Shown here piece after piece: positions 30,601 to 50,729 of a stretch of DNA of 64,000 bases; position 1 is the first letter of the stretch; every line of letters starts with the position of its first letter. Source of the stretch: Roseburia sp. (GTDB lineage Bacteria; Bacillota; Clostridia; Lachnospirales; Lachnospiraceae); NCBI GenBank assembly GCA_023664265.1, contig JAMPFV010000002.1, forward strand, positions 27,223 to 91,222, read 5' to 3'. Made by a program: the position numbers and the translations under genes. The notes below the pieces were generated by a model that saw only the letters and a program-made list of their open reading frames with translations, did no database searches and was not told where the DNA came from.

Positions 30601-31547
30601 CCACCAAGGAGAAGGGCGCGGACGGGAATCCGTTAAAGGCAACCTGTGTCGTCACGGTAAATTCCAACGCGGCTTCGGACACGACGACAAAGCTCAAGGA
30701 TAAGAACGGCAACCAGATTTATGTCAGGGACGGCGGCAACGGCTATAAGGAGGCTGTCTATGCGGACTACTTTACCGCGTCGGAGTTCTTTATCCGGACG
30801 GAGGGGCAGTACGCCTACACAGGATGGCAGACAATCGGCGGAAAGCGGTATTATTATGACAAGAACGGCAACGCCGTGACCGGTACGCAGGTTATTCAGG
30901 GTGTCACCTACAACTTTGATTCCACAGGCGCGATTGCGACCTCGGTAAACGGAACGACGTTCGGCATTGACATTTCAAGGCATAACGGAAATATCGACTG
31001 GAACGCGGTAAAGGCCTCCGGCGTGGACTATGTGATTATCCGCTGCGGCTACCGCGGCTCTGCGACCGGCGTGCTGATTGAGGACGAGAGCTTCAAGAAG
31101 AATATCAAGGGCGCTACCGCGGCAGGCTTAAAGGTGGGAATCTATGTATTCTCGCAGGCGGTGGACGAGGTGGAGGCCGTGAAGGAGGCTTCCCTTGCGG
31201 TGAGCCTTGCCAAGGGCTATAACCTCACCTATCCGATTTTCATTGACACTGAGTCCAGCGGCGGAAGAGCTGACAAGATTGACACCGCGACCAGAACGGC
31301 AGTTGTCAACGCTTTCTGTCAGACGGTTGCGAGCGCCGGATATCAGCCGGGAATCTATGCGTCGAAGACATGGTTTGAGACGAAGCTCAACATGGGCGCA
31401 ATCGGCAATTACCGGATATGGCTGGCACAGTACGCCGCCGCGCCGAGCTACAAGGGCAGATACGATATGTGGCAGTATTCCAGCAAGGGAACCATCAGCG
31501 GGATCAGCGGAAAGGTGGACTTAAATTTGAGCTATCTCGGATATTAA
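27690..31547 (+). CDS. Membrane-anchored multidomain GH25 muramidase with a long acidic repetitive N-terminal tail
   Basis: 1285 aa. Residues 1 to about 350 are E/Y/D-rich repeats. A single TM (FDVILASTGVLLLVAVAVAGSMYL) follows. Three Big_2-like modules (VTAKSAGTAEITYTV, VTGVKEGKVTITATI, VTGVAPGKATITATT). Cell-wall-binding repeats (GWQTIGGKRYYYDKNGNAVTG). GH25 block FGIDISRHNGNIDW ... IFIDTES. Confidence 0.85.
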   Translation: MKKRKAFGLYGTNKRKTAKRADKYTEEFYETYEEADYAEEEFAEEYADGEYGCEETVYTESGYAEEFTDEYADGEYEGVTFADDDCEEEYEGAVDTDSDYYTESGYAEEFADEYADGEYEGVTFADDDCEEEYEGAVDTEPYTDALYENADDTGSDYYTETGGAEEYAEGYTDGAYEDTGDTQELSGEYASEECIPEEYASEEYIPEEYASEEYIPEEYASEEYIPEEYASEEYIPEEYASEEYVSEEYESGEYTQNAYAEEVSGTGGAYTDDYEDGYDGMDDETGYENETGYGNETGYENAYEDAENSFETAYGDSDAPDMYDMYEEDEVAFGPELRGGFGERLREWFSNMTAFDVILASTGVLLLVAVAVAGSMYLETKRVNERIEALVPMGEELAEIGIVGEDGLVAMTNSALSGQFAAELESETVSSIVDAGEESNAPEAVSDKVNVNFTSVEKDLKIRFTDANTGELITGTAFEVVLTNAKGKKLVLTDDDMDGIIYAQNVNPGKFDVVITSTDKYKFPTLAQQVTVKDKVEYVVIRDVQDEVKKESQVNVAAEDTQKQDAQKEEEQITDTVEWVESTQTLLSGTESYLAVDKNTIEDPSKTARAAARMLFDTLNVTLDKTELSLTVGSSADLAGTKFTDSTEGDITYKYKTEWKSSNESVATVSDGKVTAKSAGTAEITYTVTRTTITTVTEEGTPKTSTETEEKTMSEAEFETYKKEIEGKSDAEYQVTVESKEAVSGEGSGETADSGAETASGETRYKYRITITKTEKGESTTSTKETTDTGSAKCKVTVEAAKITSAALELSKSAESCSVGGTLTVKPSKLVYTKENGTKEEAASFPTVTWSSSDKAVATVDANGVVTGVKEGKVTITATISGVKGAGGKEIPISATTTVTVSAAPALTLKLDRTEDVSLNVGGQTTLVATVTNYKSDAGVVWETSDKKIATVSEAGVVTGVAPGKATITATTKEKGADGNPLKATCVVTVNSNAASDTTTKLKDKNGNQIYVRDGGNGYKEAVYADYFTASEFFIRTEGQYAYTGWQTIGGKRYYYDKNGNAVTGTQVIQGVTYNFDSTGAIATSVNGTTFGIDISRHNGNIDWNAVKASGVDYVIIRCGYRGSATGVLIEDESFKKNIKGATAAGLKVGIYVFSQAVDEVEAVKEASLAVSLAKGYNLTYPIFIDTESSGGRADKIDTATRTAVVNAFCQTVASAGYQPGIYASKTWFETKLNMGAIGNYRIWLAQYAAAPSYKGRYDMWQYSSKGTISGISGKVDLNLSYLGY
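27861..28106. repeat. 129-bp (43-codon) tandem repeat, two near-identical copies, with a degenerate third start near 28160
   Basis: 27861-27989 and 27990 onward both encode YTESGYAEEF.DEYADGEYEGVTFADDDCEEEYEGAVDT. Confidence 0.9.
28251..28430. repeat. 30-bp tandem repeat x6 encoding EYASEEYIPE
   Basis: Six consecutive 30-nt units (gaatacgcatctgaggaatacatacccgag and variants), read directly. A partial seventh unit follows. Confidence 0.95.
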
Positions 31548-31641: not shown

Positions 31642-32718
31642 ATGAGGACCTATTTGGTAACGGGAGGCGCCGGCTTCATTGGCTCGAACTATATTCACTA
31701 TATGTTTCGGAAATATGGCGATGCGATCAAAATCATCAACGTGGACGCTCTGACCTATGCCGGAAATCTTGAGAACCTCAAGGACATTGAGGATAGAGAC
31801 AACTATGTGTTCGTGAAGGCGGACATTACGGATAAGGCGGCGATTGCGGCGGTTTTCGCTGAGAATGACATCGACAGGGTGGTTCATTTCGCGGCGGAGA
31901 GCCATGTGGACAGGAGCATTAAGAATCCGGAGGTCTTCGTGCAGACCAATGTGCTCGGAACGGCGGTGATGCTCAACTGCGCCAAGGCGGCGTGGGAGCT
32001 TCCCGACGGCAGCTTTCAGGAGGGGAAGAAGTTCCTCCATGTATCGACGGATGAGGTGTACGGTTCCCTCGAGAACGAGGGGGAGTATTTCTATGAGACG
32101 ACGCCCTACGACCCGCACAGCCCCTATTCGGCGAGCAAGGCCTCCTCGGATATGTTGGTGAAGGCGTATATGGACACCTATAAGTTCCCTGCGAATATCA
32201 CGAACTGTTCAAACAATTACGGGCCGTATCAGTTCCCGGAGAAGCTGATACCGCTGATTATCAACAACGCCCTGCAGGGCAGGAGCCTTCCGGTCTACGG
32301 GGACGGGAAGAATGTCCGCGACTGGCTGTATGTGGAGGATCACGCCAAGGCGATTGACATGGTGCAGGAGCAGGGGCGGCTGTTTGAGACCTATAACATC
32401 GGCGGGCACAACGAGAAGCAGAACATTGAAATCATCGAGATTATCATTGAGACGCTGCAGGAGCAGCTCTCAGAGGAGGACCCGAGAAAGGCGCTGGTAT
32501 CAAAGGATTTGATCACTTATGTCGCTGACAGGAAGGGACATGACAGGCGCTACGCCATCGCGCCGGACAAGATTAAGGCGGAGATTGGCTGGGAGCCGGA
32601 GACCATGTTCAAGGAGGGCATCAGGAAAACCATCCAATGGTACTTTGAGCATGAGGATTGGATGAAGAACGTCACAAGCGGCGACTATCAGAACTACTAT
32701 GCGGAGATGTACCAATAG
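31642..32718 (+). CDS. rfbB: dTDP-glucose 4,6-dehydratase
   Basis: YLVTGGAGFIGSNY, STDEVYG and PYSASKASSD. 358 aa. Confidence 0.95.
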   Translation: MRTYLVTGGAGFIGSNYIHYMFRKYGDAIKIINVDALTYAGNLENLKDIEDRDNYVFVKADITDKAAIAAVFAENDIDRVVHFAAESHVDRSIKNPEVFVQTNVLGTAVMLNCAKAAWELPDGSFQEGKKFLHVSTDEVYGSLENEGEYFYETTPYDPHSPYSASKASSDMLVKAYMDTYKFPANITNCSNNYGPYQFPEKLIPLIINNALQGRSLPVYGDGKNVRDWLYVEDHAKAIDMVQEQGRLFETYNIGGHNEKQNIEIIEIIIETLQEQLSEEDPRKALVSKDLITYVADRKGHDRRYAIAPDKIKAEIGWEPETMFKEGIRKTIQWYFEHEDWMKNVTSGDYQNYYAEMYQ

Positions 32719-32844: not shown

Positions 32845-33714
32845 ATGAAAGGTATTATTTTAGCGGGAGGGTCGGGCACCCGTCTCTATCCGCTGACAAA
32901 GGCGATTTCCAAACAGATTATGCCGGTCTATGACAAGCCGATGATATATTATCCGCTCTCGACGCTGATGCTTGCGGGAATCCGGGATATTCTGATCATC
33001 TCGACCCCGAGGGACCTCCCGATATTCAGGGAGCTTTTCGGGACGGGGGAGCAGTTGGGGCTTCATATGGAGTACGCGGTTCAGGAGCAGCCCAGAGGGC
33101 TTGCGGACGCGTTTATCATCGGCGCGGAGTTTATCGGCGGCGATTCGGCGGCGCTGGTGCTCGGGGACAATATCTTCTACGGGCAGAGCTTTTCCAAGCT
33201 GCTGCAGCGGGTGGCGCAGAAGGAGAGCGGCGCGACGATTTTCGGATACTATGTCAGAGACCCCAGAGAGTACGGCGTGGTGGAGTTTGATGAGAACGGG
33301 AAGGCCATTTCCATCGAGGAGAAGCCGGAGCATCCCAAGAGCAACTACGCGGTGCCGGGACTTTATTTCTACGACAATGATGTGGTGGAGATTGCGAGGA
33401 ATGTGAAGCCGTCCGCGCGGGGCGAGATTGAGATTACGAGCATCAACAACGAGTATCTCTGTCGGGGGACGCTCACCGTCGAGACGATGGGGCGCGGCTT
33501 TGCGTGGCTGGATACGGGGAATCACGATTCCCTTTTGGACGCGGCGGATTTCGTGTGCGCGTTCCAGAAGCGGCAGGGGCTGTACATCTCCTGCATTGAG
33601 GAGATTGCGTATAAGAGAGGCTTTATCACAAGGGAGCAGCTTCTGAAGCTGGCGGAGCCCTTGATGAAGACGGAGTACGGAAAATATTTGGTAGAGGTTG
33701 CGAATGGACTCTAA
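32845..33714 (+). CDS. rfbA: Glucose-1-phosphate thymidylyltransferase
   Basis: [24 protein letters not shown] and LGDNIFYG. 289 aa. Confidence 0.95.
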
Positions 33715-35017
33715 GGGAAAGAGAATAGGCATTCTGCTTGTATTGCTGGCGGTGATGCTCGTGATGGCGGCATTGGTGGTTGTGAATTTCAGCCGGCTGA
33801 AGGGTCGTCCGCGGCAGCCTGTTCAGGAACAGAATACACAGGATTATACAGGGCGCACGATCGAGGCTGACGGCAGAGTCAGGGGCGCGGATTTGTCGGC
33901 GTTTCTGCGGGATGAGGAGTTCTTCGACGAGGTCACCGACGGCGGCGACGGTCTGCTTCAGGCTGCATATGATGAGGTGGATGAGAATGGGGAGCTTGTC
34001 CGGACGCTGACCTTGCTGGTAAGCTCCGTGGAGCGGGATATCCGCGTGAAGATTGTGGACGATAAGGGTGAGGTGGTGTCCGGTCAGGCGTTCGCGGTTC
34101 AGGTTGCGGACACGGGGGCTTACATCGACGAGGACAGGGACGGAATCATTCATATCTCCGGTATCAAGCCGGGGCAGTATCAGGTATCCCTCTCCGCGAT
34201 TGAGGGCTTTGCGGTTCCCGAGGAGCCGGCCAATGTCCGGGTGAAGTCCATTGTATCCTACACGGTGATTGACGATATCGAATACTTTGTCCATTCCGAA
34301 TCCGAGGTGGATATCCTGAAGGAGGATGCGGAGCGCGGTCACGGCGAGCTGGACGAGGAGGACGAGGACGACACGCAGTACACGGCGCTTCTGGATATGG
34401 AGGGGCGGGATAACGCGGTTGCGCTCGGCATTGACGTCTCCAAGTGGAACGGGGAGATTGACTGGGACATCGTGAAAGCTGAGGGCGTTGACTTTGCGAT
34501 TATCCGCTGCGGCTACCGCGGTTCTTCCTCCGGATGGCTGGTGGAGGATCCGTATTTCTACAAAAACATTGAGGGCGCAAGGTCGGCCGGCATCAAGGTC
34601 GGCATCTACTTCTTTACGCAGGCGGTCAGCCAAGTGGAGGCGGTGGAGGAGGCCAGTATGGTCATCTCGCTGTTGGGGGATGTCGAGCCGGATTATCCGA
34701 TTTTTATTGACACGGAGGGCGCGGGCGGCAGCGGGCGCGCTGATACGCTGGATGTCGCGACAAGGACGGCGGTTGTCAACGCTTTCTGTCAGACCATTCA
34801 GAACGCGGGACTGGAGGCCGGCGTCTATGCGAGCAGGAATTGGTATTACAATAATCTGGCGCTGGATGAGACCTACAGCCATAAGATCTGGCTTGCGGAA
34901 TATCGTCAGACGCCCGAGTATACGGGAAGATATGACATGTGGCAGTACACCTCCGGAGGCTCGGTGGCCGGCATTGAGGGGCGCGTTGATCTGAATGTCA
35001 GCTATTTGGGCTATTAG
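33704..35017 (+). CDS. Membrane-anchored GH25 muramidase, short paralog of 27690-31547
   Basis: N-terminal [22 protein letters not shown]. Prealbumin-like module ([22 protein letters not shown]...[12 protein letters not shown]). GH25 block [14 protein letters not shown] ... IFIDTEG. Ends [12 protein letters not shown] versus GKVDLNLSYLGY in the large paralog. Starts at ATG 33704 or TTG 33698 and overlaps the rfbA stop. Confidence 0.85.
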
Positions 35018-35065: not shown

Positions 35066-35617
35066 ATGGGAAAGATTACGGTAGAGACATGTGGGATAGA
35101 AGGACTGAAGATTATCACGCCGACGGTCTTCGGAGATAACAGAGGTTATTTTATGGAGACCTACAGCTACAGAGACTTTAAGGAGGCAGGGATTGACCAT
35201 GTGTTTGTGCAGGACAATCAATCCGCGTCCAAGAAAGGCGTTCTGAGAGGATTGCATTTTCAGAAGGAGTTCCCGCAGGACAAGCTGGTGCGCGTGATCA
35301 AGGGAGAGGTGTACGACGTGGCGGTGGATCTCAGAGAGGGCTCCAAGACCTTTGGCCGGTGGTACGGGGTACTGCTCTCGGAGGAGAACAAGAAGCAGTT
35401 CTTTGTCCCGAAGAATTTTGCGCACGGCTTTCTCGTGCTTTCCGATTACGCGGAGTTCTGCTATAAATGTACGGAATTTTATCATCCGAATGACGAGGGC
35501 GGACTGCGCTGGAACGACCCGGATATCGGCGTCAAATGGCCGCTCCCCGACGGAATGGAGCCGATTCTGGCGGAGCGCGACCAAAAGTGGGGCGGTATAA
35601 AGGACTTCAAGAGGTAG
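35066..35617 (+). CDS. rfbC: dTDP-4-dehydrorhamnose 3,5-epimerase
   Basis: GDNRGYFMETY, LRGLHFQ and KLVRVIKGEVYDVAVDLR. 183 aa. Confidence 0.95.
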   Translation: MGKITVETCGIEGLKIITPTVFGDNRGYFMETYSYRDFKEAGIDHVFVQDNQSASKKGVLRGLHFQKEFPQDKLVRVIKGEVYDVAVDLREGSKTFGRWYGVLLSEENKKQFFVPKNFAHGFLVLSDYAEFCYKCTEFYHPNDEGGLRWNDPDIGVKWPLPDGMEPILAERDQKWGGIKDFKR

Positions 35618-35623: not shown

Positions 35624-36625
35624 ATGAGAAAGGGTTTATCCAAGACGACAATCAAGCTGTTGGTGACGGTTGCGGCGGTGATTCTGGCGGCAGTCATCGT
35701 GATCCATCACAATCCGCTCGCGGATCAGCATGAGGAAACCATAAAAAAGATCATCGCATGCCTGATGATTGTGGGGGCGATGGGGATTTTTTACCGTTTT
35801 TACGATAAGCTGGTGACGCTGCCCGTGGAGCTGTGGCAGTCGCGGCATCTGCTCTGGAAGCTTGCGAAGAACGATTTCAAGAACCGTTACGCGGGTTCCT
35901 ATCTCGGGCGCGTCTGGGCGTTTACGCAGCCGGTTGTCACGGTGCTTCTGTACTGGTTTGTCTTCGGCCATGTGATGGGGCAGGACAAGCTGGAGACGCT
36001 GGCCATCGGCGTGGAGGCCCCCTATGTGCTGTGGCTGACGGCGGGACTGGTGCCGTGGTTTTATTTCAGCGAGGCCATCAACAACGGGACGACGTCGCTT
36101 CTGGAATACAGCTATCTGGTGAAGAAGGTCGTCTTTAAAATCAGCATCATTCCGATTGTGAAGCTGATTGCGGCCTCGTTTATACACATTTTCTTCGTGT
36201 GCTTTATGCTGGTCGTATATTTTGCCTACGGGTATCGCCCGGATATTTATCTGCTGCAGTTGATTTACTATAGCTTTTGCATGTTTATGTTTGTTTTGGC
36301 GCTGAGCTACTCCACCTGCGCGATTGTCATATTCTTTCGGGATTTGACGCAGATTATCGCGATTTTCCTGCAGGTGGGGATGTGGGCGACGCCGATTCTC
36401 TGGAATATCTCCATGTTGGACGGGAATCCGGTTTTGCAGAAGATATTGAAGATTAATCCGGTATTCTACATCGTGAACGGATACAGGGACGCGATGTTTA
36501 CAAAGACCTGGTTCTGGCAGGACTTCTATTCGACCTCCTACTTTTGGATTGTCACGGTCGTGTTCTTCGGAATCGGTGCGCTGATATTCCGGCGCCTCAA
36601 GACGCATTTTGCGGACATGCTATGA
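35624..36625 (+). CDS. ABC-2 type polysaccharide/teichoic-acid export permease (Wzm/TagG-like)
   Basis: LWKLAKNDFKNRYAGSYLGRVWAFTQPVVTVLLYWFVFG followed by 6 TM segments. The N-terminal extension of about 60 aa may mean a later start. Confidence 0.85.
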   Translation: MRKGLSKTTIKLLVTVAAVILAAVIVIHHNPLADQHEETIKKIIACLMIVGAMGIFYRFYDKLVTLPVELWQSRHLLWKLAKNDFKNRYAGSYLGRVWAFTQPVVTVLLYWFVFGHVMGQDKLETLAIGVEAPYVLWLTAGLVPWFYFSEAINNGTTSLLEYSYLVKKVVFKISIIPIVKLIAASFIHIFFVCFMLVVYFAYGYRPDIYLLQLIYYSFCMFMFVLALSYSTCAIVIFFRDLTQIIAIFLQVGMWATPILWNISMLDGNPVLQKILKINPVFYIVNGYRDAMFTKTWFWQDFYSTSYFWIVTVVFFGIGALIFRRLKTHFADML

Positions 36626-36669: not shown

Positions 36670-37992
36670 TTGGCGGAGATGGAACGGGAAGAAATCGCGA
36701 TTGCGGTAGAAAATGTATGCAAGGTATATAAGCTGTATGACAGACCGATGGACAGGATGAAGGAGGCCTTGGGGCTGACGAGAAAGAAGAAATACCGCGA
36801 GCACTTCGCGCTCTCCGACGTGAGCTTTGACATCCGGCAGGGGGAATGCGTGGGCATTATCGGTACGAACGGCTCAGGCAAGTCCACGATTCTCAAGATA
36901 ATAACGGGCGTTCTCAATCAGACCTCCGGGACGGTGCGCGTCAACGGCAGGATTTCCGCACTGCTCGAGCTTGGCGCGGGCTTTAACATGGAATATTCCG
37001 GCATGGAGAATATCTATCTGAACGGCACGATGAACGGTTTCTCGGAAAATGAGATTAACGGGCGGCTGCAGGACATTCTCGATTTTGCGGATATCGGGGA
37101 CTATGTGCACCAGCCGGTGAAGACCTACTCGAGTGGTATGTTCGTGCGTCTGGCGTTCTCGGTGGCGATTAACATCGACCCTGAGATTTTGATCGTGGAT
37201 GAGGCGCTGTCGGTGGGCGACGTGTTTTTCCAGGCAAAGTGCTATCACAAGTTTGAGGAATTTAAGAAGATGGGCAAGACGATCATTATCGTGAGCCATG
37301 ACTTGAGCAGTATCGCGAAATACTGCGACAGGGTCATCCTGCTGAATCAGGGCGTGAAGCTCGGCGAGGGGCTTCCCAAGGATATGATCGACGATTTCAA
37401 GCGCGTGCTGGTCGGGCAGTATGAGCTGCCGGAGGAGAAGTCGAAGCAGAGTCTCCTAAATGATGAGGCGGTTCAGGAGGCAGTGCTGGCCAAGAGTGCG
37501 GCACAGCAGAAGAAAAAGAACGCGGGGCAGGCGGACACAAGGACATTGGAATACGGCACGAGGGATGCCGTGATCGAGGAATTTTATGTGACGGACGACA
37601 GAGGTGTGCGCACCAACGCTGTTATGAAGGGCGCGGAGTTTGCGATACACATGCGCGTGCGGTTTGAGAATGCGCTGCCCGCGCCGATATTCGCCTTTTC
37701 CTTTAAGACGGCGAAGGGGACGGAGATTACCGGCACGAACACCATGTTTGAGAAGGCGTTTCTGGATTCTGTCGAGGCCGGTGCGGTGAAGGAGGTCAGC
37801 TTCACGCAGAAGATGTCCCTTCAGGGCGGGGAATATCTGCTCTCATTTGGCGTCACGGGGTATGACGGGAATGATTTTCAGGTGTACCACAGGCTGTATG
37901 ACGCGCTGGACGTGACGGTGATTTCCGACAAGAACACCGTCGGATATTATGATATGGACTCCGCGGTTGTGGTGCGGGACGTACAGCCCTGA
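36670..37992 (+). CDS. ABC exporter ATPase (Wzt/TagH-like) with a C-terminal beta-sandwich (Wzt_C-like) domain
   Basis: Walker A GTNGSGKST, signature YSSGM and Walker B ILIVDEAL. After the linker SAAQQKKKNAGQAD comes a module of about 150 aa (EEFYVTDDRG...GGEYLLSFGV...YHRLYDALDVTV). Start is TTG 36670 or ATG 36679. Confidence 0.85.
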   Translation: MAEMEREEIAIAVENVCKVYKLYDRPMDRMKEALGLTRKKKYREHFALSDVSFDIRQGECVGIIGTNGSGKSTILKIITGVLNQTSGTVRVNGRISALLELGAGFNMEYSGMENIYLNGTMNGFSENEINGRLQDILDFADIGDYVHQPVKTYSSGMFVRLAFSVAINIDPEILIVDEALSVGDVFFQAKCYHKFEEFKKMGKTIIIVSHDLSSIAKYCDRVILLNQGVKLGEGLPKDMIDDFKRVLVGQYELPEEKSKQSLLNDEAVQEAVLAKSAAQQKKKNAGQADTRTLEYGTRDAVIEEFYVTDDRGVRTNAVMKGAEFAIHMRVRFENALPAPIFAFSFKTAKGTEITGTNTMFEKAFLDSVEAGAVKEVSFTQKMSLQGGEYLLSFGVTGYDGNDFQVYHRLYDALDVTVISDKNTVGYYDMDSAVVVRDVQP

Positions 37993-38033: not shown

Positions 38034-40112
38034 ATGGCAGACAAGCAGGAAAAAATAGGGAAGGTGGTACTGGATCTGACCTGTTATCCGGGGGAGGATA
38101 TCTATACGGACGGGGCGATTGAGGATGAGATGTTGGAAATCGTAAAGAACAATGCGCCGGAGGCCTTTCCGGAGATTATTGAGCAGAAAAAGAGCTGGCC
38201 GATATTCTATCATCTGTCCGAATTTCGTCCGAATATCATCAACTGGCTGCCCTTTAAGAGGACGGACAGGGTTCTGGAAATCGGCGCGGGCTGCGGCGCA
38301 ATAACGGGCGCTTTGGCAGAGCGCGCGGGCCGTGTGACCTGCATTGATCTGTCCAAGAAGAGAAGCCTTATCAATGCCTACAGGAATCGGGAGCGGGAAA
38401 ACATCACGATCATGGTGGGCAATTTCAAGGATATTGAGCCGCTGCTTCCGGAGGATTTCGACTATGTGCTCCTGATCGGCGTGTTTGAGTACGGGCAGGC
38501 TTATATCGGCGGGGATACACCGTACGAGGACTTTATGCGCATCTGCAACCGTCACCGGAGCGATTCGGGGCGCATGGTCATCGCGATCGAGAACAAATTC
38601 GGCCTCAAGTATTGGGCGGGCTGCAGAGAGGATCATCTGGGCACCTACTTTTCGGGGCTTGAGGGGTATCGGGAGGGCGGAAGCGCCCGCACCTTTACGC
38701 GGCATGGCTTGGAAAACATTCTGCGCCGGGCGGGGATTGCGGAATACGCCTTCTATTATCCGTATCCGGATTATAAGTTTATGACGACGATTTACTCTGA
38801 CCGGTATCTGCCCCGCAAGGGCGAGCTTTGCAATAATCTCAGGAATTTCGATAGAGAACGAGTGTTATTATTTGACGAGAAGCAGGTGTTTGACCAGATT
38901 ATAGAGGAGGAGGAGTTCCCGCTGTTCTCCAATTCCTATCTGCTGTTGGTTGGCGGTGCGCCCGAGGTGGTGTACGCGAAGTTTTCCAATGACCGGAGCC
39001 GTGATAAGGCGATCCGGACCGCCATCGTGCAGGAGCCGGGGGGCGGACTGCATGTGGAGAAGCTGCCGGACACGACCGCGGCGCGCGGGCATATCGAGGA
39101 TACCTATCGGGCTTATGAGCTGCTCTCGAAACGGTATGAGGGCACGAAGGTCACCATCAACCGCTGTCGCCGGATGGGCGGGGATGCCGACGCGGGGCTG
39201 GCTTTTGCGTTCTGTAACGGCACGACGCTGGAGGGGATGCTCGACGCATGTCTGACCAAGGGGGACATGGAGGGCTTTGAGCGGCTGATCGCGGAGTACA
39301 TGGAATGGCTGCGCTATAACGAGGAGACGGCCGGCGTCAGCAATGTGGATTTTATTTTCCCGAATATCCTGATAGAGGGCGACCGCTGGCATGTGATCGA
39401 CTATGAGTGGACCTTTGAGAAGCATATCCCCGCGGAGGCTATCGCGTTCCGGGCGTTTTATACCTACATGCTGGGGAGCGAGAGCCGGAGAGCCTGTGGG
39501 GAGCTGCTGATGGGCCGGACGCTTGGCTTTACGCAGGAGCGGATACAGGCGGGAATTGCGGCGGAGCAGGAGTTCCAGCGCTATGTGGGCGGCGCGGGCG
39601 CGTCGGTCAGCGCGATGCGGGAGCTGATAGGGAATCGGGCCTATGAGCTTGCGGGAATGCTGGAATACTGCGTTTACGCGGACAGTAAATTTTCGGCGAA
39701 AATATATATTGATTACGGGGAGGGCGGCTTCAGTGAGGAGCGTTCCGTCACCTTTAAGGACTGCTATGTGGAGGAGCGCAGGCTGAGCCTCGCGTTCGAT
39801 ATTCCGGAGGGGGCGGTTCGGCTTCGCATTGACCCGTGCTCCTATGTGTGCGCGGTGGAGCTTGTCCGAATCGCGGTGGATGAGACGCCGTATACATGGG
39901 ACATGATAGAGACGAACGGCGTCCTGCAGGCCTGCGGCTGGCTCGTGTTTGACAACGCGGATCCGAATCTGACTGTTTCCGTTGCGGGCGGCGGGCATCT
40001 GACCGTGGAGCTGGAGGTCTTAGAGCTGCCCGAGGCGCTGGCGAAGCAGCTGACGGCTTCCGCGGCGCGGGAGAACGTCTTTTCCAAGGCAAAGCGGTTT
40101 TTGAATTTATAG
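38034..40112 (+). CDS. SAM-dependent methyltransferase fused to a kinase-fold domain and a beta-rich C-terminal module (WbdD-like domain order)
   Basis: ATG at 38034 after the RBS aggaggaga. Motif I is VLEIGAGCGAITG. Downstream lie VVYAKFS, VDFIFPNILIEG (D-x4-N) and HVIDYEWTF, spaced as in APH/choline-kinase folds. The last 160 aa or so are beta-rich. Confidence 0.6.
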   Translation: MADKQEKIGKVVLDLTCYPGEDIYTDGAIEDEMLEIVKNNAPEAFPEIIEQKKSWPIFYHLSEFRPNIINWLPFKRTDRVLEIGAGCGAITGALAERAGRVTCIDLSKKRSLINAYRNRERENITIMVGNFKDIEPLLPEDFDYVLLIGVFEYGQAYIGGDTPYEDFMRICNRHRSDSGRMVIAIENKFGLKYWAGCREDHLGTYFSGLEGYREGGSARTFTRHGLENILRRAGIAEYAFYYPYPDYKFMTTIYSDRYLPRKGELCNNLRNFDRERVLLFDEKQVFDQIIEEEEFPLFSNSYLLLVGGAPEVVYAKFSNDRSRDKAIRTAIVQEPGGGLHVEKLPDTTAARGHIEDTYRAYELLSKRYEGTKVTINRCRRMGGDADAGLAFAFCNGTTLEGMLDACLTKGDMEGFERLIAEYMEWLRYNEETAGVSNVDFIFPNILIEGDRWHVIDYEWTFEKHIPAEAIAFRAFYTYMLGSESRRACGELLMGRTLGFTQERIQAGIAAEQEFQRYVGGAGASVSAMRELIGNRAYELAGMLEYCVYADSKFSAKIYIDYGEGGFSEERSVTFKDCYVEERRLSLAFDIPEGAVRLRIDPCSYVCAVELVRIAVDETPYTWDMIETNGVLQACGWLVFDNADPNLTVSVAGGGHLTVELEVLELPEALAKQLTASAARENVFSKAKRFLNL

Positions 40113-40122: not shown

Positions 40123-42210
40123 TTGGTGCGAATTATGATAAGTAGGATAAAAACAGCGATTCAGGACAAGTTATATGAGAACTGCATTACGGAGTACCAG
40201 AGGGAGCTGCGCTGCCAGACGGATCCTTATTTGGTGTGGATCAAGGAGAATGAGCGGACGGACGACGGGAGCACGGAGGAGTCCTATCCGTCGCTGGGCG
40301 TTGTGTATATGGAGCAGTGCACGGCGGACTTCTCGCTGGAGTCCATCGGGAAGGAATATATTGTCTTTGTGTCGGGGAACGGGAAGATTTCGGTCAATGC
40401 CTTTCGGGAGATTATGAAGTATTTTGACAGCCATGAGGCGGTTGACGTGCTTTATGCCGACGAGGATGTGTGGATGCTGCCCGAGGAGGGCACCGACGAT
40501 ATGGAGGGGCGCGTGCTGTCCAAGGAGGCGGACGACGAGCTGGTGCACCGCACCTATCCGTGGACAAAGCCGATGTGGTCGCCGGACACGCTGTTTTCGT
40601 TCTTTTATTTTGGCAATATTTTTGCGGTCAGGAGAAAGGCTCTCGCGTCCATCCAATGGCTGGGAAATGAGGACTACCGCAAGAATATCTATGATTTTGC
40701 CCTGAAGGCGACAGAGTCCGGAAAGCGCGTGGGGCATATTGAGAAAATTTTGTTCCATGCGTTTGAGCAGGGGAGGAACCGGGAGGAAATCGAGGAGCGC
40801 CTGATGCACAAGACGGACTATATCGGTGTGGGGCCGTCCTATGACTTTATCCGCAAGGCCGCCATGGACCGGCGCGGACAGCAGGGACGGATGTTTCTCG
40901 ACAGCATGACGGGAATCACCTATCCCGTCTATGACGCGCCCGAAAATCCCTGCGTCAGCATCATCATTCCGTCGAAGGACAACTCCGCCGTGCTGAAGCA
41001 GTGCATCGCATCGATTTACGCGCACACGGCGTACAAGAATTTTGAGGTGATCGTGGTAGATAACGGCAGTACGGCACAGACGCGCATTCGGACGGAGAAT
41101 TTTCGGGAGAGCTATGCCTTTACTTATATTTACAAGCCGATGGAGTTCAATTTCTCCGTGATGTGCAACCTCGGCGTTGAGCGCGCCAAGGGTGAATTTA
41201 TCCTGCTCTTGAATGACGATATGGAGGTCGTTGAGGACTCCTGGCTGACGAGGATGCTCGGACAGGCGGCGCTTCCGCATGTGGGAGCGGTCGGCGCGAA
41301 GCTGCTGTACCCGCAGTCGGCGCTGATACAGCATGTGGGCGTGACGAACACCGTTTCCGGTCCGGGGCATAAGCTGAAAAAGATGGATGACACGGTTTCC
41401 TACTATTACGGCAGGAACCGGTTTGTGTATGACATGATCGGCGTGACGGGGGCCTGTCTTCTGATGCGCAAGAGCTATTATGTCGCGATGGGCGGCCTCT
41501 ATAAGGATCTCCGTGTGGCGTATAACGACGTGGATCTGTGCTTCCGGCTCTGCATGAAGGGGCTGTATAACGTACAGCGCAATGACGTGGTGCTGTATCA
41601 CCATGAGTCCCTGAGCCGCGGTGACGACATGCAGGACAAGGAGAAGCTGAAGCGTCTGGGCAATGAGAAGGATATACTCTACCGCCGGCACAGGAGGTTC
41701 TATCAACAGGATCCCTTTATCGGGACGCTGATGAACAGCGGGGATCCGGAATATCGCTGTCGCTGGCTGGAGGGCTATGAGTTCGCCGGCATGAGAGGCT
41801 ATGACGAGGGGCTGCAGGAGGGCAGGCCGCTTCCGAATGAGCGGAAGATGAACCAGGCGATTATGGTTGTGGTGGAGGATTGCCGCAAGGAGAAATACAC
41901 CCAGAAATCCTACTATCTGATAAAGGGCTGGGCCTATGTGCCGGGAGCCGATAACGCCCGTTATAAATTCAAGGTGCTGTTTCAGAATATGTTGGGGGAC
42001 GTCTGGGAGATGCCGGTGCAGAGGCGTTACCGCAAGGATGTTGCGGCCATTCTGCCGGGGGAGACAAATGTGGAGATGACGGGCTTTTGCAGTTGGATTT
42101 TTGACGGCGTTCTGCCGCCGGGAACCTATGAGCTTTGGATGACGGCCAAGGATAGCTGTTCGAGACAGCGCCTCTATCGGAAGATGAACAAGCGGTTGGT
42201 GATAGATTAA
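40123..42210 (+). CDS. Multidomain GT2 glycosyltransferase (N-terminal YADED domain + GT2 + C-terminal beta module)
   Basis: VLYADEDVW, VSIIIPSKDN...VIVVDNGS, LLLNDDMEV, HVGAVGAKLLYP and YHHESLSRG. Alternative ATG at 40135. Confidence 0.8.
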   Translation: MVRIMISRIKTAIQDKLYENCITEYQRELRCQTDPYLVWIKENERTDDGSTEESYPSLGVVYMEQCTADFSLESIGKEYIVFVSGNGKISVNAFREIMKYFDSHEAVDVLYADEDVWMLPEEGTDDMEGRVLSKEADDELVHRTYPWTKPMWSPDTLFSFFYFGNIFAVRRKALASIQWLGNEDYRKNIYDFALKATESGKRVGHIEKILFHAFEQGRNREEIEERLMHKTDYIGVGPSYDFIRKAAMDRRGQQGRMFLDSMTGITYPVYDAPENPCVSIIIPSKDNSAVLKQCIASIYAHTAYKNFEVIVVDNGSTAQTRIRTENFRESYAFTYIYKPMEFNFSVMCNLGVERAKGEFILLLNDDMEVVEDSWLTRMLGQAALPHVGAVGAKLLYPQSALIQHVGVTNTVSGPGHKLKKMDDTVSYYYGRNRFVYDMIGVTGACLLMRKSYYVAMGGLYKDLRVAYNDVDLCFRLCMKGLYNVQRNDVVLYHHESLSRGDDMQDKEKLKRLGNEKDILYRRHRRFYQQDPFIGTLMNSGDPEYRCRWLEGYEFAGMRGYDEGLQEGRPLPNERKMNQAIMVVVEDCRKEKYTQKSYYLIKGWAYVPGADNARYKFKVLFQNMLGDVWEMPVQRRYRKDVAAILPGETNVEMTGFCSWIFDGVLPPGTYELWMTAKDSCSRQRLYRKMNKRLVID

Positions 42211-42212: not shown

Positions 42213-44234
42213 ATGAGGGGGCTGGCGATGAATTATCAGGAAGCGCTGTTTGCGCAATATACGCCTTATCTGCAATGGCTCTCGGAGCAGAGACAACAGG
42301 AGGACGGTACGGAGACGGGGGAGCGTGTCCGCATACTTCCCTTTTCCTCGTGCATGGAGCCGGCCGGGACGCTTGCGGACGGCAGCCGGGCGGAGGCGGA
42401 TGATATATATATATTCATAAACAGGGACGGCAGAATGGAGGCGCACGCGCCGGCGGAAATCGCGCGGGCCTTTGCGCGTCATCCGGAGGCGGCGCTGGTC
42501 TACGCGGACGAGGATTATTTCGGTACGCTGCGGGAGCTGTATGGAATTGAGGAGGAGCGGTTTGACGCGTCGATTTTGGAACGCTATCAGGACGCCGGGA
42601 CGGGACTTTACAGGGGAGCGCCATGGTTTAAGCCGGACTTTTCACCGGATACGCTGCGCTCCTTTTTCTATATCGGGGGGATATTCGCAATCAGAGGAGC
42701 TGTCCTGCGGCGCGTATGGCAGCCGGAAAAGAGCCTGTATGAGCTGGTGACGGCGATAGCGGAGCTTGCGGGATTTGGCCGCCGAATGGAAATCATACAT
42801 CTGCCGCAGGTGCTTTACACCAATCTGCGGCTGTCGGACAGCGGGACACTGGCAGGCGCCGGCGCACTGTCCGAGAAAACGGAGCTGTCCGCGGCAAAGG
42901 ATACGGTATCCGTCATCATACCGAGCAGGAATCACAGCGGCGTTCTGGAGCGGTGTCTGCGGACGCTCACGGCCGGCACGGAGGCGGTTTCCTATGAGCT
43001 GATCATTGTGGATAACGGCAGTGACGCTCCGGAGAGGGCGCGGCTGGAGCGGCTTTTTGATGAGCTCAGGGAGAGCCGTGCGGGACTGTGCCTGACATAT
43101 CTGTATGAGGAAAGTCCCTTTAATTTTTCGAGGATGTGCAATCAGGGCGCCCGCAGGGCGGCCGGGGATTATCTGCTGTTTTTGAATGACGATATCGAGG
43201 TCATCCGGCCCGACTGGCTGACAAACATGCTGCAATCGGCGCGGCAGAGGCATGTCGGGGCAGTGGGCGCAAAGCTTCTGTATCCGGACAGGGAGGGCGG
43301 AGCGGCCCGATACCACACGATACAGCATGTGGGGATTACCAATATGGCCATCGGTCCGGCGCACAAGCTGGGAGGGATGGAGGACAAGGGGTGTCTGTAT
43401 CACGGACATAATCTTGTCACTTATGACATGCTCGCGGTGACGGCGGCCTGTCTGCTGATTGCGCGGGACAAATTCGAGCTTGCGGGCGGCTTTGACGAGG
43501 AGCTTGCAATTGCGTACAATGACGTGTCCCTCTGCTTCCGGCTGTACGAGAACGGCCTCTTTAACGTTCTTCGGAATGACGCGGCGCTGTACCACCATGA
43601 ATCCCTGAGCCGCGGGCAGGATACTTCTCCGGAAAAGCAGGAGCGCCTGAAACGGGAGTTGGAACGCCTGTATAAAAAACATCCGCAATTAAAAGGAAAG
43701 GATCCCTTCTACAGCCCGCATCTGGTACAGTGGAAAAAGGATGTGCGGTATTGCACCGGCTATCTGTATGACTGTGACAGGCCGGTCACGCCGAAAAGGC
43801 TGAGCGGAAGAGCCGTGAGGGCGCTGCCGAGGGAGCACACGCAGCCCTATGTGAGGAAGCTCACGGGAGAGAGTCTTGTGATGCTCTCGATTGACGATAT
43901 TGTGTCGGATACGCAGGTCGTGATAACCGGCTGGTATGCGCTGAGAAGGCACGACAATGCCCTTGTCGATGGGAGGCTCCTGCTGCGCGATATAAATAAC
44001 AATAGTAATGTTTATGTACTGCCGATTCATCCGCAGCTGCGGGAGGATGTTCCGGAGCTGTTCCGGCAGGAGACAGGGCGAAGACGGACGATTCATATGG
44101 AGCTTTCCGGAATACAGGTGATATTTAACCGGACGGATTTGCCGGAGGGATGTTATGAGGTCGGTATTCTGATAAAGAAAAGCAGATGTTATATAAAGTG
44201 GAGCGGGCAGCCTGTGGAATGCCGGCGGCAATAG
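42213..44234 (+). CDS. Multidomain GT2 glycosyltransferase, paralog of 40123-42210
   Basis: Same motif order: VYADEDYF, VSVIIPSRNH...LIIVDNGS, LFLNDDIEV, HVGAVGAKLLYP and YHHESLSRG. Confidence 0.8.
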   Translation: MRGLAMNYQEALFAQYTPYLQWLSEQRQQEDGTETGERVRILPFSSCMEPAGTLADGSRAEADDIYIFINRDGRMEAHAPAEIARAFARHPEAALVYADEDYFGTLRELYGIEEERFDASILERYQDAGTGLYRGAPWFKPDFSPDTLRSFFYIGGIFAIRGAVLRRVWQPEKSLYELVTAIAELAGFGRRMEIIHLPQVLYTNLRLSDSGTLAGAGALSEKTELSAAKDTVSVIIPSRNHSGVLERCLRTLTAGTEAVSYELIIVDNGSDAPERARLERLFDELRESRAGLCLTYLYEESPFNFSRMCNQGARRAAGDYLLFLNDDIEVIRPDWLTNMLQSARQRHVGAVGAKLLYPDREGGAARYHTIQHVGITNMAIGPAHKLGGMEDKGCLYHGHNLVTYDMLAVTAACLLIARDKFELAGGFDEELAIAYNDVSLCFRLYENGLFNVLRNDAALYHHESLSRGQDTSPEKQERLKRELERLYKKHPQLKGKDPFYSPHLVQWKKDVRYCTGYLYDCDRPVTPKRLSGRAVRALPREHTQPYVRKLTGESLVMLSIDDIVSDTQVVITGWYALRRHDNALVDGRLLLRDINNNSNVYVLPIHPQLREDVPELFRQETGRRRTIHMELSGIQVIFNRTDLPEGCYEVGILIKKSRCYIKWSGQPVECRRQ

Positions 44235-44249: not shown

Positions 44250-46244
44250 ATGGAGAACGAAAAGCAAAATCAGAATCAGAACTTGTCTGAGGCGGAATTT
44301 TACAGGCAGGCCTACGAGCAGGAGAAGGCGCGCGCCGCATCTCTGGCGGGAAGGCTTGCCGATGCCAGAAATGAGGCGGACAATCTGCAGTCTCAGCTGG
44401 ACCGCATCAAGAAGAATCCCATCTGGAAGGCGAGTAAGCCGCTCCGCGCAGGAATGCACTGGGGGATTCGCAATTACAGGAGAGTTCGCAATCTGGGCGG
44501 CCCCAAGGGAATCGCAAGGAAGCTGCGCCAGAAGAAAATCGAGGCACAGGCGAAGAAGCTCCACGGCACGGCGAGCTTCCCGACGCCGGAGGAGGCGCAG
44601 CGTCAGCGCACGGCGGTGTTTGAGCGGATGGTGAAGATCAGCATTCTGGTCCCGCTGTGGAACACACCGCTCCCGTTTCTGGAGGAGATGATCGGCTCTG
44701 TGCAGGCGCAGACGTACCGGAACTGGGAGCTGTGTCTGGCCGATGGATCCGACAGCGCGCACAATGAGGTGGAGGAGCGCTGCCGCGCCTATGCGGAGAA
44801 GGACGCGCGGATTGTCTACAAAAGATTGGAGAAGAATGAGGGGATTTCAGGGAACACAAACAGGTGTTATGAGATGGCGACGGGCGAGTATATCGGTCTG
44901 TTCGACCATGACGACGTGCTGCATCCGGCGGCGCTGTATGAGTATGTGAAGGTGATCAACGAGCAGGGCGCGGATTACATCTATTGTGATGAGACGACTT
45001 TCAAGGGGGACAGCATCAACAACATGATCACGCTGCATTTTAAGCCGGACTATGCGATTGACAATCTGCGCGCCAACAATTATATCTGCCATTTCAGCGT
45101 GTTCGCGCGGACGCTGTTGGAGGGGACGGAGCTGTTTCGGAGCGGCTTCGACGGCAGTCAGGACCACGATATGATTCTGCGCCTCACAAGCAATGCGAAG
45201 AAGGTGGTGCATGTGCCCAAGCTTTTGTATTATTGGCGTTCCCACAAGGGCAGCACGGCGAGCGATATCAGCGCGAAGCCCTACGCCATAGCGGCGGCGA
45301 AAGGCGCGGTGGCGGATCACCTGACGAAGAGCGGTTTCAAGAACTTCGAGCTCAAGAGCACGCGCGCGTTTGACACCATATTTGAGATTAAATATGAAAT
45401 TCTCAGGGAGGATAAGATCTCGATTCTGATACCGAACAAGGATCATATCGACGATTTGCGGCGCTGCATCGATTCCATTAAGAGCCGGTCAACGTATGAG
45501 AACTATGAGATTATCATTATCGAGAACAACAGTGAGGAGAAGGCGACCTTCGATTACTATCAGACGTTGGAGGACGACGATAAAATAACGGTAATTACTT
45601 ATAAGGGGCCGTTCAATTATTCCCGAATCAACAACTTCGGCGCGCGCGCCGCCACGGGAGAATATCTACTGTTATTAAATAATGACACGCAGGTCATCAC
45701 GATGAACTGGCTGGAGAACCTGCTGATGTACGCGCAGCGGCCGGACGTCGGCGCGGTGGGGGCAAAGCTCTATTATGGGAACCGCACGATACAGCACGCG
45801 GGGGTGGTGATCGGCCTTGGCGCGCACCGGACGGCGGGGCACACGCATTATAAGATTAACTATGACAATCTCGGCTATATGGGGCGGCTCTGCTATGCGC
45901 AGGACGTGTCGGCAGTGACGGGGGCGTGCCTGATGGTGAAGAAACGCCTCTTTGACGCGCTCGGCGGTCTGGACGAGACCTTTGAGATTGCGCTGAATGA
46001 TGTGGACTTCTGTCTGCGTCTGCGGGAGCAGGGGTATCTGAATGTGTTTACGCCGTTTGCGGAGCTGTATCACTTTGAGTCCGCCTCCCGCGGGAGTGAC
46101 GTGGTGGACGAGGAGAAGGCGAAGCGCTATGAGGAGGAGTCGGAGCGGTTTCGGACGAAGTGGCGCCGGGCGCTTGAGAAGGGCGACCCGTACTATAATC
46201 CGAACTTCTCGCTGGATTACAGCGATTATTCGCTGCGGGTGTGA
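44250..46244 (+). CDS. Tandem double-GT2 glycosyltransferase with an N-terminal coiled-coil segment
   Basis: N-terminus AEFYRQAYEQEKARAASLAGRLADARNEADNLQSQLDRIKKNP. GT2 domain 1: ISILVPLWNT...LCLADGSD...LFDHDD...YCDET. GT2 domain 2: ISILIPNKDH...IIIIENNS...LLLNNDT...YHFESASRG. Confidence 0.8.
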   Translation: MENEKQNQNQNLSEAEFYRQAYEQEKARAASLAGRLADARNEADNLQSQLDRIKKNPIWKASKPLRAGMHWGIRNYRRVRNLGGPKGIARKLRQKKIEAQAKKLHGTASFPTPEEAQRQRTAVFERMVKISILVPLWNTPLPFLEEMIGSVQAQTYRNWELCLADGSDSAHNEVEERCRAYAEKDARIVYKRLEKNEGISGNTNRCYEMATGEYIGLFDHDDVLHPAALYEYVKVINEQGADYIYCDETTFKGDSINNMITLHFKPDYAIDNLRANNYICHFSVFARTLLEGTELFRSGFDGSQDHDMILRLTSNAKKVVHVPKLLYYWRSHKGSTASDISAKPYAIAAAKGAVADHLTKSGFKNFELKSTRAFDTIFEIKYEILREDKISILIPNKDHIDDLRRCIDSIKSRSTYENYEIIIIENNSEEKATFDYYQTLEDDDKITVITYKGPFNYSRINNFGARAATGEYLLLLNNDTQVITMNWLENLLMYAQRPDVGAVGAKLYYGNRTIQHAGVVIGLGAHRTAGHTHYKINYDNLGYMGRLCYAQDVSAVTGACLMVKKRLFDALGGLDETFEIALNDVDFCLRLREQGYLNVFTPFAELYHFESASRGSDVVDEEKAKRYEEESERFRTKWRRALEKGDPYYNPNFSLDYSDYSLRV

Positions 46245-46951
46245 GCGTGGACGGTAAATGGATGATCGGCTTTCTGAAGCTGGGGACGGCGTTGAAAATA
46301 TCGGATAAGAGAGTACTGGCGCATTATGACGCGAATATAGCGCTGTTGACAGAGGCTGCTGCCGCCGGCGGCTTTTACAAATCCGGTCAGCCCGTTGAGA
46401 ACCAGGAGGATTGGGGAGGTATTGCGTTCGGAGCCGTTTCCATGAAGCAGGCAGGGTGCGGGATGATCGCCACATACAATGCGAGGGTGTCCCTCGGGGA
46501 AAACCTGACAGAAAAGGATATGGCGGCGCTGATTAGCATGTATGAAAGGAAGTGGGCGGTCTGTGGCGGAAAATTTGGTGTTGTGCCGACAGCGCCATAT
46601 GCTTATTTTAAAGGGCTGGGGTATGATACCGATATGATCACAGGCGCGGAGCCGGAGGACATTAATGCGATGGGACGAAGCCATGATACGATTATTATGT
46701 GTTATTTTAACAATCAGGACAGCGTTACGGCCGGAATGCACATCGTAAATATATCAAAGGATACGGACGGGTACAGATGCCATAACGGATATTATAAGAA
46801 CCGAAAGACAAATTCATGGAGCGTGGGGGAAGCAAAAGCCGGTCTGTGGGAAACGGTGCGGTCGCTGGCGGGTGGAAAAGCAAAGCCTGTATGCACAATC
46901 GGGATTAACCGGAAGGACATCCGTTGGCCAGTGAAGAACTGTTACATATAA
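46241..46951 (+). CDS. Hypothetical cytoplasmic protein with a papain-like Cys/His signature
   Basis: 236 aa. GTG start overlaps the upstream stop (GTGA). Motifs MKQAGCGMIATYNA (Q-x2-C-G) and TAGMHIVNISKDTDG. No signal peptide or TM segment. Confidence 0.45.
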   Translation: MSVDGKWMIGFLKLGTALKISDKRVLAHYDANIALLTEAAAAGGFYKSGQPVENQEDWGGIAFGAVSMKQAGCGMIATYNARVSLGENLTEKDMAALISMYERKWAVCGGKFGVVPTAPYAYFKGLGYDTDMITGAEPEDINAMGRSHDTIIMCYFNNQDSVTAGMHIVNISKDTDGYRCHNGYYKNRKTNSWSVGEAKAGLWETVRSLAGGKAKPVCTIGINRKDIRWPVKNCYI

Positions 46952-48830: not shown

Positions 48831-48865
48831 AAAATGACAAGAAGAGTGAGGAACGGTCGGCAGCT

Positions 48866-49309: not shown

Positions 49310-49328
49310 CGAAAACAGAGGGAAAACA

Positions 49329-50717: not shown

Positions 50718-50729
50718 GGGCAGGAGATT

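Follow-up and report, generated by a model that had tools for sequence, protein, structure and literature searches.

A predicted methyltransferase-kinase chain terminator of the Klebsiella O7 ORF6 type in a candidate wall-polymer locus of Roseburia

The ORF6 protein of Klebsiella pneumoniae O7 (ORF6-O7), characterized in 2024, contains in order a methyltransferase, an unannotated kinase of 223 aa, a predicted Ig-like 'CBM' (carbohydrate-binding module), a coiled coil and two rhamnosyltransferase modules of glycosyltransferase family 2 (GT2) (Kelly et al., J Biol Chem; PMC11231755). It attaches methyl-phosphate to the terminal alpha-1,3-rhamnose at O-3, with only part of the product methylated in vitro, and a D441A substitution inactivated the kinase in vitro and blocked export in vivo (PMC11231755). 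The published orthologues are all from Proteobacteria and Cyanobacteria and all have the coiled coil, and the authors found the enzyme pair to be unlike WbdD in sequence and predicted structure (PMC11231755). For Gram-positive bacteria, a 2022 review of rhamnose-rich wall polysaccharides went no further than suggesting a terminal cap. Here we analyse a gene (38034..40112, + strand) from a 64,000-nt stretch of a Roseburia sp. genome (contig JAMPFV010000002.1), referred to hereafter as the window, in whose numbering all positions are given. From its domain anatomy, homology, conserved catalytic residues and conserved neighbourhood, we consider it likely that the product is a cytoplasmic bifunctional chain terminator of the ORF6-O7 N-terminal type, adding a methyl-phosphate cap that would license export.

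Domain anatomy of the 692-aa protein

The open reading frame (ORF) at 38034-40112 encodes a product of 692 aa. An AGGAGG Shine-Dalgarno sequence lies ~8 nt 5' of the ATG at 38034 and homologues have the same start residue, confirming that the gene called in a first-pass annotation of the window is real. All 120 matches listed were full-length homologues at 57-88% identity. Pfam and NCBIfam searches of the whole protein found methyltransferase families alone, around aa 63-190, and searches of PDB sequences with either the single sequence or a full-length family profile found nothing beyond methyltransferases. A full-length AlphaFold2 (AF2) model, built with 36 homologues as input (pLDDT, the predicted local distance difference test score, 80), revealed a methyltransferase to about aa 245, a confident alpha/beta domain at aa 301-552, strands at aa 554-664 and a helix at aa 667-691. 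Four parts make up the protein. A class I S-adenosylmethionine (SAM) methyltransferase is followed by a protein-kinase-like domain of highly divergent sequence and then by a beta-sandwich module, and a short basic helix closes the chain. Conservation was assessed in 36 close relatives and in 57 diverse relatives of 25-47% identity taken from an exhaustive search.

The methyltransferase half (aa 1-300; 38034..38933, + strand) begins with an N-terminal extension carrying YxDG and SWPxFYHLS. Its core carries E82-x-G-x-G-x-G88, and IAIENKFGLKYWAGCREDH and YPYPDYKF are family-specific stretches. The segment VLEIGAGCGAITG at aa 80-92, together with matches to Pfam Methyltransf_11/25/12 over aa 80-154 (E about 1e-8), bears out the class I SAM methyltransferase recognized at first pass; the assignment is also supported by invariant columns and by the BLASTP matches to the N-terminal part of ORF6-O7 (ORF6-N) described below. 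Segments up to aa 300 were extremely conserved, yet poorly modelled by AF2. Conservation within this half was strictest in IENKFGLKYWAGCREDH, YYPYPDYKF and NNLRNFDRER…FSNSY (aa 186-201, 241-249 and 267-300; 38589-38636, 38754-38780 and 38832-38933, + strand), where pLDDT was <50. ORF6-O7-type proteins have these stretches too; they may serve as a lid over the substrate or as an interface between domains.

The divergent protein-kinase-like domain occupies aa 301-552 (38934..39689, + strand). A separate model of aa 301-692 (pLDDT 87), searched against the PDB with Foldseek, gave 62 matches at E<=1e-3. Because the top 50 of these were all kinase-like, we judge from the model that the kinase fold is real, though visible by structure only: Pfam searches of the kinase region alone and of the beta region alone found no match at E up to 10. 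The structural matches included MphH/macrolide 2'-phosphotransferases (E=3e-6), RIO1/RIO2, COQ8A, Bud32/PRPK (TM-score up to 0.58), YopO and JAK. As in the protein-kinase-like superfamily, the fold has two lobes, a Lys stands on the strand preceding helix C, the catalytic loop holds D-x4-N and an Asp occupies the metal-binding position; the order of secondary structures also fits.

Conservation of individual residues suggests that the kinase is apparently active. VDFIFPNIL holds D439-x4-N444 (39348-39350 and 39363-39365, + strand) and HVIDYEWTF holds D456 (39399-39401, + strand). D439, N444, D456, Y457 and E458 were invariant in both the close and the diverse relatives; R321, T329, K343, G396 and R473 were further invariant positions among the 57. 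K343 (HVEK; 39060-39062, + strand) lies on the strand directly before the long helix 351-367 of the model.

These results revise the first-pass view of the region, which had been described as APH/choline-kinase-like. Structure searching upheld a kinase-like fold, for which Pfam and searches of PDB sequences gave nothing. The catalytic loop and metal-binding Asp proposed at first pass are in place, and the remark that the usual His before the catalytic Asp is absent also holds, the residue there being variable, hydrophobic and never His. The Lys chosen as the beta-3 residue was the wrong one: K316 (VVYAKFS) is kept in ~90% of the close relatives and is unconserved in the wider set, the invariant Lys being K343.

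The beta-sandwich module (aa 553-666; 39690..40031, + strand) was modelled as an eight-strand sandwich of ~110 aa (aa 554-664) at pLDDT about 90. It conserves DYGEGFSEE, R598-I-D600-P601, G629 and D643-P644, of which R598, D600, P601, G629, D643 and P644 form a near-invariant set. The module is missing from most ORF6-type proteins retrieved. A Pseudomonas syringae protein (P0283) has one after its kinase, and its aa 568-664 aligned collinearly with the Roseburia module (29% identity over 102 aa, pairwise E=2e-6); a second protein (P0330) also aligned, and among about 80 tails a family hidden Markov model (HMM) of the module matched only weakly (E=1.6e-4). The module probably corresponds to the Ig-like 'CBM' predicted for ORF6-O7, and as modelled it appears CBM-like by position and fold. 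A relationship to the Wzt_C domain was considered and dropped, since hhalign showed none. The protein ends in a helix with a basic end (…FSKAKRFLNL; aa 667-691, 40032..40109, + strand). Beyond the beta module only 24-26 aa remain, where relatives have a coiled coil of 20-185 aa.

Relationship to the K. pneumoniae O7 terminator

For comparison, ORF6-N and four orthologues were rebuilt from the machine-read (optical character recognition, OCR) text of SI Fig. 9 of PMC11231755. BLASTP against the OCR-derived K. pneumoniae O7 ORF6-N gave 36% identity over 241 aa (E=5e-31), and against ORF6-N plus the orthologues from E. coli, Pseudomonas, Agrobacterium and a Cyanobacterium 33-40% identity over 237-312 aa (E 1e-28 to 4e-38). 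The methyltransferase motifs YSDGD, W..YHLS..R.N, LIGV.EY, IAIEN..GLKY.AG..EDH and PDYK were shared. A search with the OCR-derived ORF6 sequence found closest relatives of at most 53% identity.

The homology extends through the kinase. An alignment of 26 full-length ORF6-type proteins, compared with the Roseburia family profile to profile in hhalign, matched with a probability of 100% (E=2e-51) over 486 columns covering aa 1-525, that is, methyltransferase and kinase; the kinase-only profile matched the same family with a probability of 98.3% (E=2.4e-14). The kinase HMM gave no significant match to the OCR-derived ORF6 sequences, which end at the catalytic loop. Full-length family members were therefore used to overcome this, and the HMM matched ORF6-type proteins at E 1e-9 to 4e-5. 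In the alignment, D439-x4-N444…I-D456-Y-E-W stands opposite D447-x4-N452…I-D465-x-E-W of the family, so that D439 corresponds to the Asp of FxDAxPxN. On the strength of this alignment, we equate that Asp with D441, the residue mutated in ORF6-O7. The sequence comparisons indicate that the protein is a methyltransferase-kinase terminator of the K. pneumoniae O7 ORF6 N-terminal type and not a member of the WbdD family.

A counterpart of the remainder of ORF6 is encoded by the third gene downstream. The polymerase GTc (44250..46244, + strand) consists of an N-terminal coiled coil followed by two GT2 modules, both of which matched ORF6-O7 in order: GTc 119-384 against ORF6-O7 766-1140 (34% identity, E=5e-46) and GTc 390-662 against ORF6-O7 1141-1414 (42% identity, E=2e-69; BLASTP). 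The coiled coil (aa 13-55; 44286-44414, + strand) is a 43-aa segment in perfect heptad register, with 11 of 12 a/d positions hydrophobic and a score equalled by none of 2000 shuffles. It is followed by the motif W59KASKPLR66 (44424-44447, + strand), and both elements are kept in most of the related loci inspected. Because GTc is collinear with the coiled coil and dual-GT2 polymerase of ORF6, we read the locus as a split ORF6.

Three arrangements of the same modules were found. The first is methyltransferase-kinase-beta, about 690 aa long. In the second, a kinase-beta-coiled coil protein of 400-560 aa has a 300-aa methyltransferase gene just upstream, as seen in the one locus with a readable upstream flank. 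The third is kinase-beta-coiled coil-polymerase; a separate upstream methyltransferase gene also precedes one such fused form. In relatives the coiled coil (20-185 aa) comes straight after the beta module and ends in SWK[IL]TxP[LI]R, the same motif as in GTc, and in those of 1000-1600 aa polymerase domains of GT2, GT4 or RgpF type follow that motif. The break in the window thus falls between beta module and coiled coil, placing the coiled coil on the polymerase and leaving the terminator with a 24-aa basic tail.

Coiled coil plus W-K-x-[ST]-x-P-[LIV]-R (44286-44447, GTc aa 13-66; also in loci L082 and L088 and in relatives) is a conserved element that marks the terminator/polymerase junction of the fused relatives. 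In stand-alone kinase-beta proteins it is C-terminal, and in GTc it is N-terminal. It could serve in membrane anchoring, oligomerisation or docking.

The first-pass annotation had described the last part of the terminator as beta-rich rather than coiled-coil, which the ~110-aa sandwich and 25-aa helix of the AF2 model bear out, and had proposed that this part replaces the coiled coil as a length-sensing ruler. The latter proposal fails on three counts. In relatives the beta module coexists with a variable coiled coil; the kinase of the P. syringae ORF6-type protein is followed by a similar module, which has been reported in ORF6-O7 too; and a coiled coil of ~45 aa is present in this locus at the N-terminus of GTc.

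Exporter, neighbouring genes and distribution

Immediately upstream of the terminator gene lie wzm (35624..36625, + strand; Pfam ABC2_membrane), encoding the permease of a glycan ATP-binding cassette (ABC) exporter and found upstream in 75 of 80 loci, and wzt (36670..37992, + strand), encoding its ATPase. Wzt was 35% identical to E. coli O9 Wzt over 436 aa, its full length, and ends in a carbohydrate-binding domain (Wzt_C, E=7.5e-40; aa about 293-429, nt about 37546-37956, + strand), the predicted reader of the cap. The sole PDB sequence match of this domain was 2r5o, which we take to be the cap-binding module of O9a Wzt. Downstream, two variable large GT2 proteins, GTa (40123-42210) and GTb (42213-44234), are encoded on the + strand ahead of GTc. 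Their C-terminal modules resemble module 2 of ORF6-O7 (47% and 44% identity, respectively, to ORF6-O7 1141-1414; BLASTP), and between loci they are conserved at just 30-68%. The neighbours named at first pass, Wzm and Wzt before and three large GT2 genes after, were thus confirmed by Pfam.

A scan of species-representative genomes found the cassette at 593 sites or more, of which the best 80 were examined. Nearly all of these 80 carry the label Lachnospiraceae or one of its genera (Roseburia, Agathobacter, Acetatifactor, Blautia), a few bins being labelled otherwise, and the gene order in them, rmlC-wzm-wzt(+Wzt_C)-terminator-GT(s)-GTc, shows practically no variation. The kinase-plus-beta unit, for which there is no Pfam model, was found in 1430 representative clusters at E<=1e-3, whose named members are annotated as 'class I SAM-dependent methyltransferase' or 'GT2 family glycosyltransferase'. 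Methyltransferase and kinase always occurred together, as fused or adjacent genes, and kinase-beta was also fused to RgpF or GT2 polymerases; in every relative examined, the kinase-like domain lay in a glycan-assembly locus or was fused to glycosyltransferases. The P. syringae pv. tomato locus (L090 5282-10038) reads rmlC-wzm-wzt(+Wzt_C)-methyltransferase-kinase, its terminator gene being readable to aa 679 and N-masked beyond. The occurrence of the same order in a gamma-proteobacterium and in Lachnospiraceae suggests that the cassette is old or has moved horizontally.

Further genes point to the type of polymer. The products of rmlB (31642-32718), rmlA (32845-33714) and rmlC (35066-35617), all on the + strand and identified by Pfam, would supply dTDP-rhamnose. 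Beyond the three GT2 genes lie a phosphoglucomutase gene, GtrA and GT2 genes, an initiating phosphoglycosyl transferase gene (51920-53329, + strand; Pfam Bac_transf, E=9e-75) and a gene for an LCP-family ligase (53348-54829, + strand; LytR_cpsA_psr, E=1e-29). The initiating transferase and the LCP ligase indicate a polymer linked to peptidoglycan, and from its gene content we take the locus to specify a wall polymer that contains rhamnose, is linked to peptidoglycan and is made by the ABC-transporter route.

Several other features of the window were recorded. A gene for a GH25 muramidase-like protein of 439 aa with a weak SpaA-like domain match (33698-35017, + strand; Pfam) separates rmlA from rmlC within the rml operon, and the same insertion occurs in a distantly related locus (P0140). 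Just upstream of the rml genes, 27690-31547 encodes a protein of 1285 aa that combines three Big_2 domains and a choline-binding repeat with a GH25 domain at its C-terminus and may be an autolysin anchored to the wall polymer. Downstream of the polymerase, 48797-51707 holds a GtrA-like protein gene and two GT2 genes, a position taken in locus L086 by GT2-GtrA-PMT; the set fits a lipid-carrier route for side-chain sugars added outside the membrane. An ORF of 236 aa that overlaps the stop of GTc (46241-46951) had no Pfam match and no counterpart in the 80 related loci (tblastn E<1e-10). At 16667-26726 there is a second glycopolymer set: GT2, DUF6020, a second Bac_transf, a WecG/TagA-type transferase, YdjC, a GDSL esterase and DUF6077.

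Predicted capping reaction and comparison with known systems

We infer the chemistry of the cap, the acceptor sugar and the dependence of export on the cap by analogy with the characterized homologue. A rhamnose-rich polymer would grow on undecaprenyl phosphate through the polymerase GTc, probably with GTa and GTb. The kinase-like domain, with D439 as catalytic residue, N444 and D456 as Mg/ATP ligands and K343, would phosphorylate a hydroxyl of the non-reducing terminal sugar, probably L-rhamnose, the beta-sandwich most likely serving it as a glycan-holding (CBM-like) accessory. The N-terminal SAM methyltransferase would then methylate the terminal phosphate, and the methyl-phosphate cap would halt elongation. 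Recognition of the cap by the C-terminal carbohydrate-binding domain of Wzt would restrict export by Wzm/Wzt to capped chains, and the LCP enzyme would ligate the exported polymer to peptidoglycan. A cap-and-export logic had been suggested at first pass, and this part of the suggestion is supported by the pairing of a methyltransferase with an apparently active kinase, by the 2r5o-like domain of Wzt and by the invariant wzt-terminator-GT order in the 80 loci.

How chain length would be set is a more tentative matter. Possibly the terminator-ruler-polymerase has been cut in Lachnospiraceae, leaving an orphan 45-aa coiled-coil ruler on GTc and a free terminator, with chain length determined by docking or by kinetic competition. 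If so, the terminator would either dock non-covalently on the tip of the GTc coiled coil, via its beta module or basic tail, or act by pure kinetic competition. The rule that a terminator always resides on a coiled-coil protein would then be broken, methyl-phosphate-capped wall rhamnans would be expected on abundant gut Firmicutes, and the split arrangement would be a natural experiment on the coiled-coil ruler mechanism.

Some observations weigh against a terminator of the ORF6-O7 type. The diverse kinase-only profile found no kinase among PDB sequences and, because the domain has neither a Pfam nor a PDB sequence match, the case for kinase activity rests on the conserved residues and one characterized homologue. 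The invariant K343 is out of register with the invariant Lys of ORF6-type proteins (K345 in CKET), so that the geometry of the ATP site may differ from theirs. The cap, the acceptor sugar and the position modified are extrapolated from a relative at about 28-36% identity, and rmlD was not found in the annotated parts of the window. Finally, every terminator described so far has a coiled coil on the same polypeptide, and this one does not.

Of the alternatives, a terminator with a different cap survives best, although we regard it as unlikely. Such an enzyme would leave the phosphate unmethylated or cyclised, as in the 2,3-cyclophosphoryl-rhamnose of Clostridium difficile SLCT-11, or would O-methylate a sugar hydroxyl. 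WbdD requires H132 and H133 for phosphate methylation, and these align with the invariant E152 and Y153 of the Roseburia protein. We considered that this replacement might mean loss of phosphate methylation. The argument was dropped because ORF6-O7 has LEY at that site and still makes methyl-phosphate. The partial methylation of the ORF6-O7 product in vitro is consistent with a different cap, as is the clostridial glycan, whose phospho-rhamnose cap is accompanied by a neighbouring AdoMet (SAM) methyltransferase gene and a Wzt of the Wzt_C type. Against it, the methyltransferase half is the best-conserved link to ORF6-O7, and methyltransferase and kinase are inseparable in the relatives.

A decorating enzyme, adding phosphate or methyl to internal residues or to a lipid-linked intermediate, appears very unlikely. 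Phosphate-containing decorations exist on rhamnose-rich Gram-positive wall polymers, and caps have not been shown for any Lachnospiraceae polymer. A decorating role is hard to reconcile with the strict adjacency of the gene to wzt with its cap-reading domain, with homology to a proven terminator, and with the fusion of relatives' kinase-beta units to polymerases through a coiled coil, which is the geometry of a terminator-polymerase.

We consider it still more improbable that the protein is a true member of the WbdD family (E. coli O9a/K. pneumoniae O3), as the first-pass label of a WbdD-like terminator would imply. That label holds for domain order and fold. WbdD likewise has a methyltransferase followed by a kinase and is encoded directly after wzm-wzt, as also in E. 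coli HS (L001 17966-20092), where RefSeq names it only 'class I SAM-dependent methyltransferase', the same uninformative name that Lachnospiraceae proteins bear. WbdD structures (4azt, 4ax8, 4azs, 4azw) were also the top four Foldseek matches of the full-length model (E 1e-8 to 1e-7 over about 500 aligned columns), ahead of methyltransferase-only matches. Their TM-scores were low (0.19-0.31), which we attribute to a different orientation of the domains in the model. The label fails for family membership. BLASTP against WbdD gave 23% identity over 130 aa (28 bits) in the methyltransferase only; hhalign of the family profile against the single WbdD sequence matched the methyltransferase only, with a probability of 26%, and the kinase profile matched the WbdD kinase with a probability of 0.2%. 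Pfam finds APH and Pkinase in the WbdD kinase and neither in ours, and WbdD was missing from the top 50 matches of the kinase-plus-beta model (aa 301-692).

A pseudokinase, or a small-molecule phosphotransferase of the Mph/APH kind unrelated to the polymer, is barely credible: macrolide phosphotransferases and RIO kinases match the domain best in structure and no sequence match to known kinases was found, but the catalytic D, N, D and Lys are invariant in 57 diverse relatives, a homologue is a proven glycan kinase and the domain keeps to glycan-assembly loci or glycosyltransferase fusions in every relative examined.

A terminator of the ORF6-O7 type thus remains the preferred reading, and it extends the type described in 2024 for Klebsiella O7 from Proteobacteria and Cyanobacteria to Firmicutes. 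Our literature search found no description of a Gram-positive terminator of this type; the first-pass statement that such an enzyme had not been characterized accordingly stands for Gram-positive bacteria, and does not stand for the enzyme type, known since 2024 (PMC11231755). Termination and length control of Gram-positive rhamnose-rich wall polymers become a testable question, with a concrete prediction for 593 or more cassette sites: a named enzyme would make a methyl-phosphate cap that the Wzt domain would read.

Among the known systems, ORF6-O7 is the closest. It shares the order of methyltransferase and kinase without a recognisable sequence family, followed there by an Ig-like domain and here by the probably corresponding beta module. 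Its locus likewise has rml genes, wzm and a wzt whose product carries a carbohydrate-binding domain, and GTc shows homology to the two GT2 modules of ORF6. It differs in being a single polypeptide, whereas the Roseburia system is split directly after the beta module with the coiled coil on the polymerase, and in lacking the one or two extra glycosyltransferase genes that lie here between terminator and coiled-coil polymerase. Identity is about 28-36%, and the host is Gram-positive, with a polymer probably ligated to peptidoglycan by LCP rather than attached to lipid A-core.

WbdD resembles the Roseburia protein in predicted role, its methyl-phosphate cap being read by the carbohydrate-binding domain of Wzt. 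In contrast to the Roseburia protein, it has a long trimeric coiled-coil ruler, a membrane helix, a WbdA-binding region, no beta module and a mannose acceptor, and the sequence relationship is limited to generic methyltransferase similarity. In WbbB of K. pneumoniae O12 and other coiled-coil terminator-polymerases, a coiled-coil spacer joins both activities and export is gated by a carbohydrate-binding domain of Wzt; this is the layout of the fused relatives of our protein (kinase-beta-coiled coil-glycosyltransferases, 1000-1600 aa). The WbbB terminator is, however, a Kdo transferase, and in the window terminator and coiled coil are on separate proteins.

The R. gnavus glucorhamnan cluster was rejected as an instance of the same locus: the paper on it describes a Wzx/Wzy-style (flip-then-polymerise) pathway and contains neither the term 'ABC transporter' nor the term 'methyltransferase'. 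Among Gram-positive bacteria, the closest precedent comes from C. difficile SLCT-11 (Ox247), whose S-layer glycan bears a cyclophospho-rhamnose cap. This Firmicute glycan likewise contains rhamnose and is assembled through an ABC-transporter pathway; its non-reducing end bears a phosphate derivative of rhamnose, and an AdoMet methyltransferase gene, orf10, lies beside a Wzt with a Wzt_C-like domain. The product of orf10 may be a member of the ORF6-O7-type family. The cap differs in being a 2,3-cyclic phosphate without methyl, and the glycan is carried on the S-layer protein. Compared with the enzyme type described in 2024, the chemistry and export logic of the Roseburia locus are predicted to be the same, and the phylum, the wall-polymer context and the split organisation of the modules are new.

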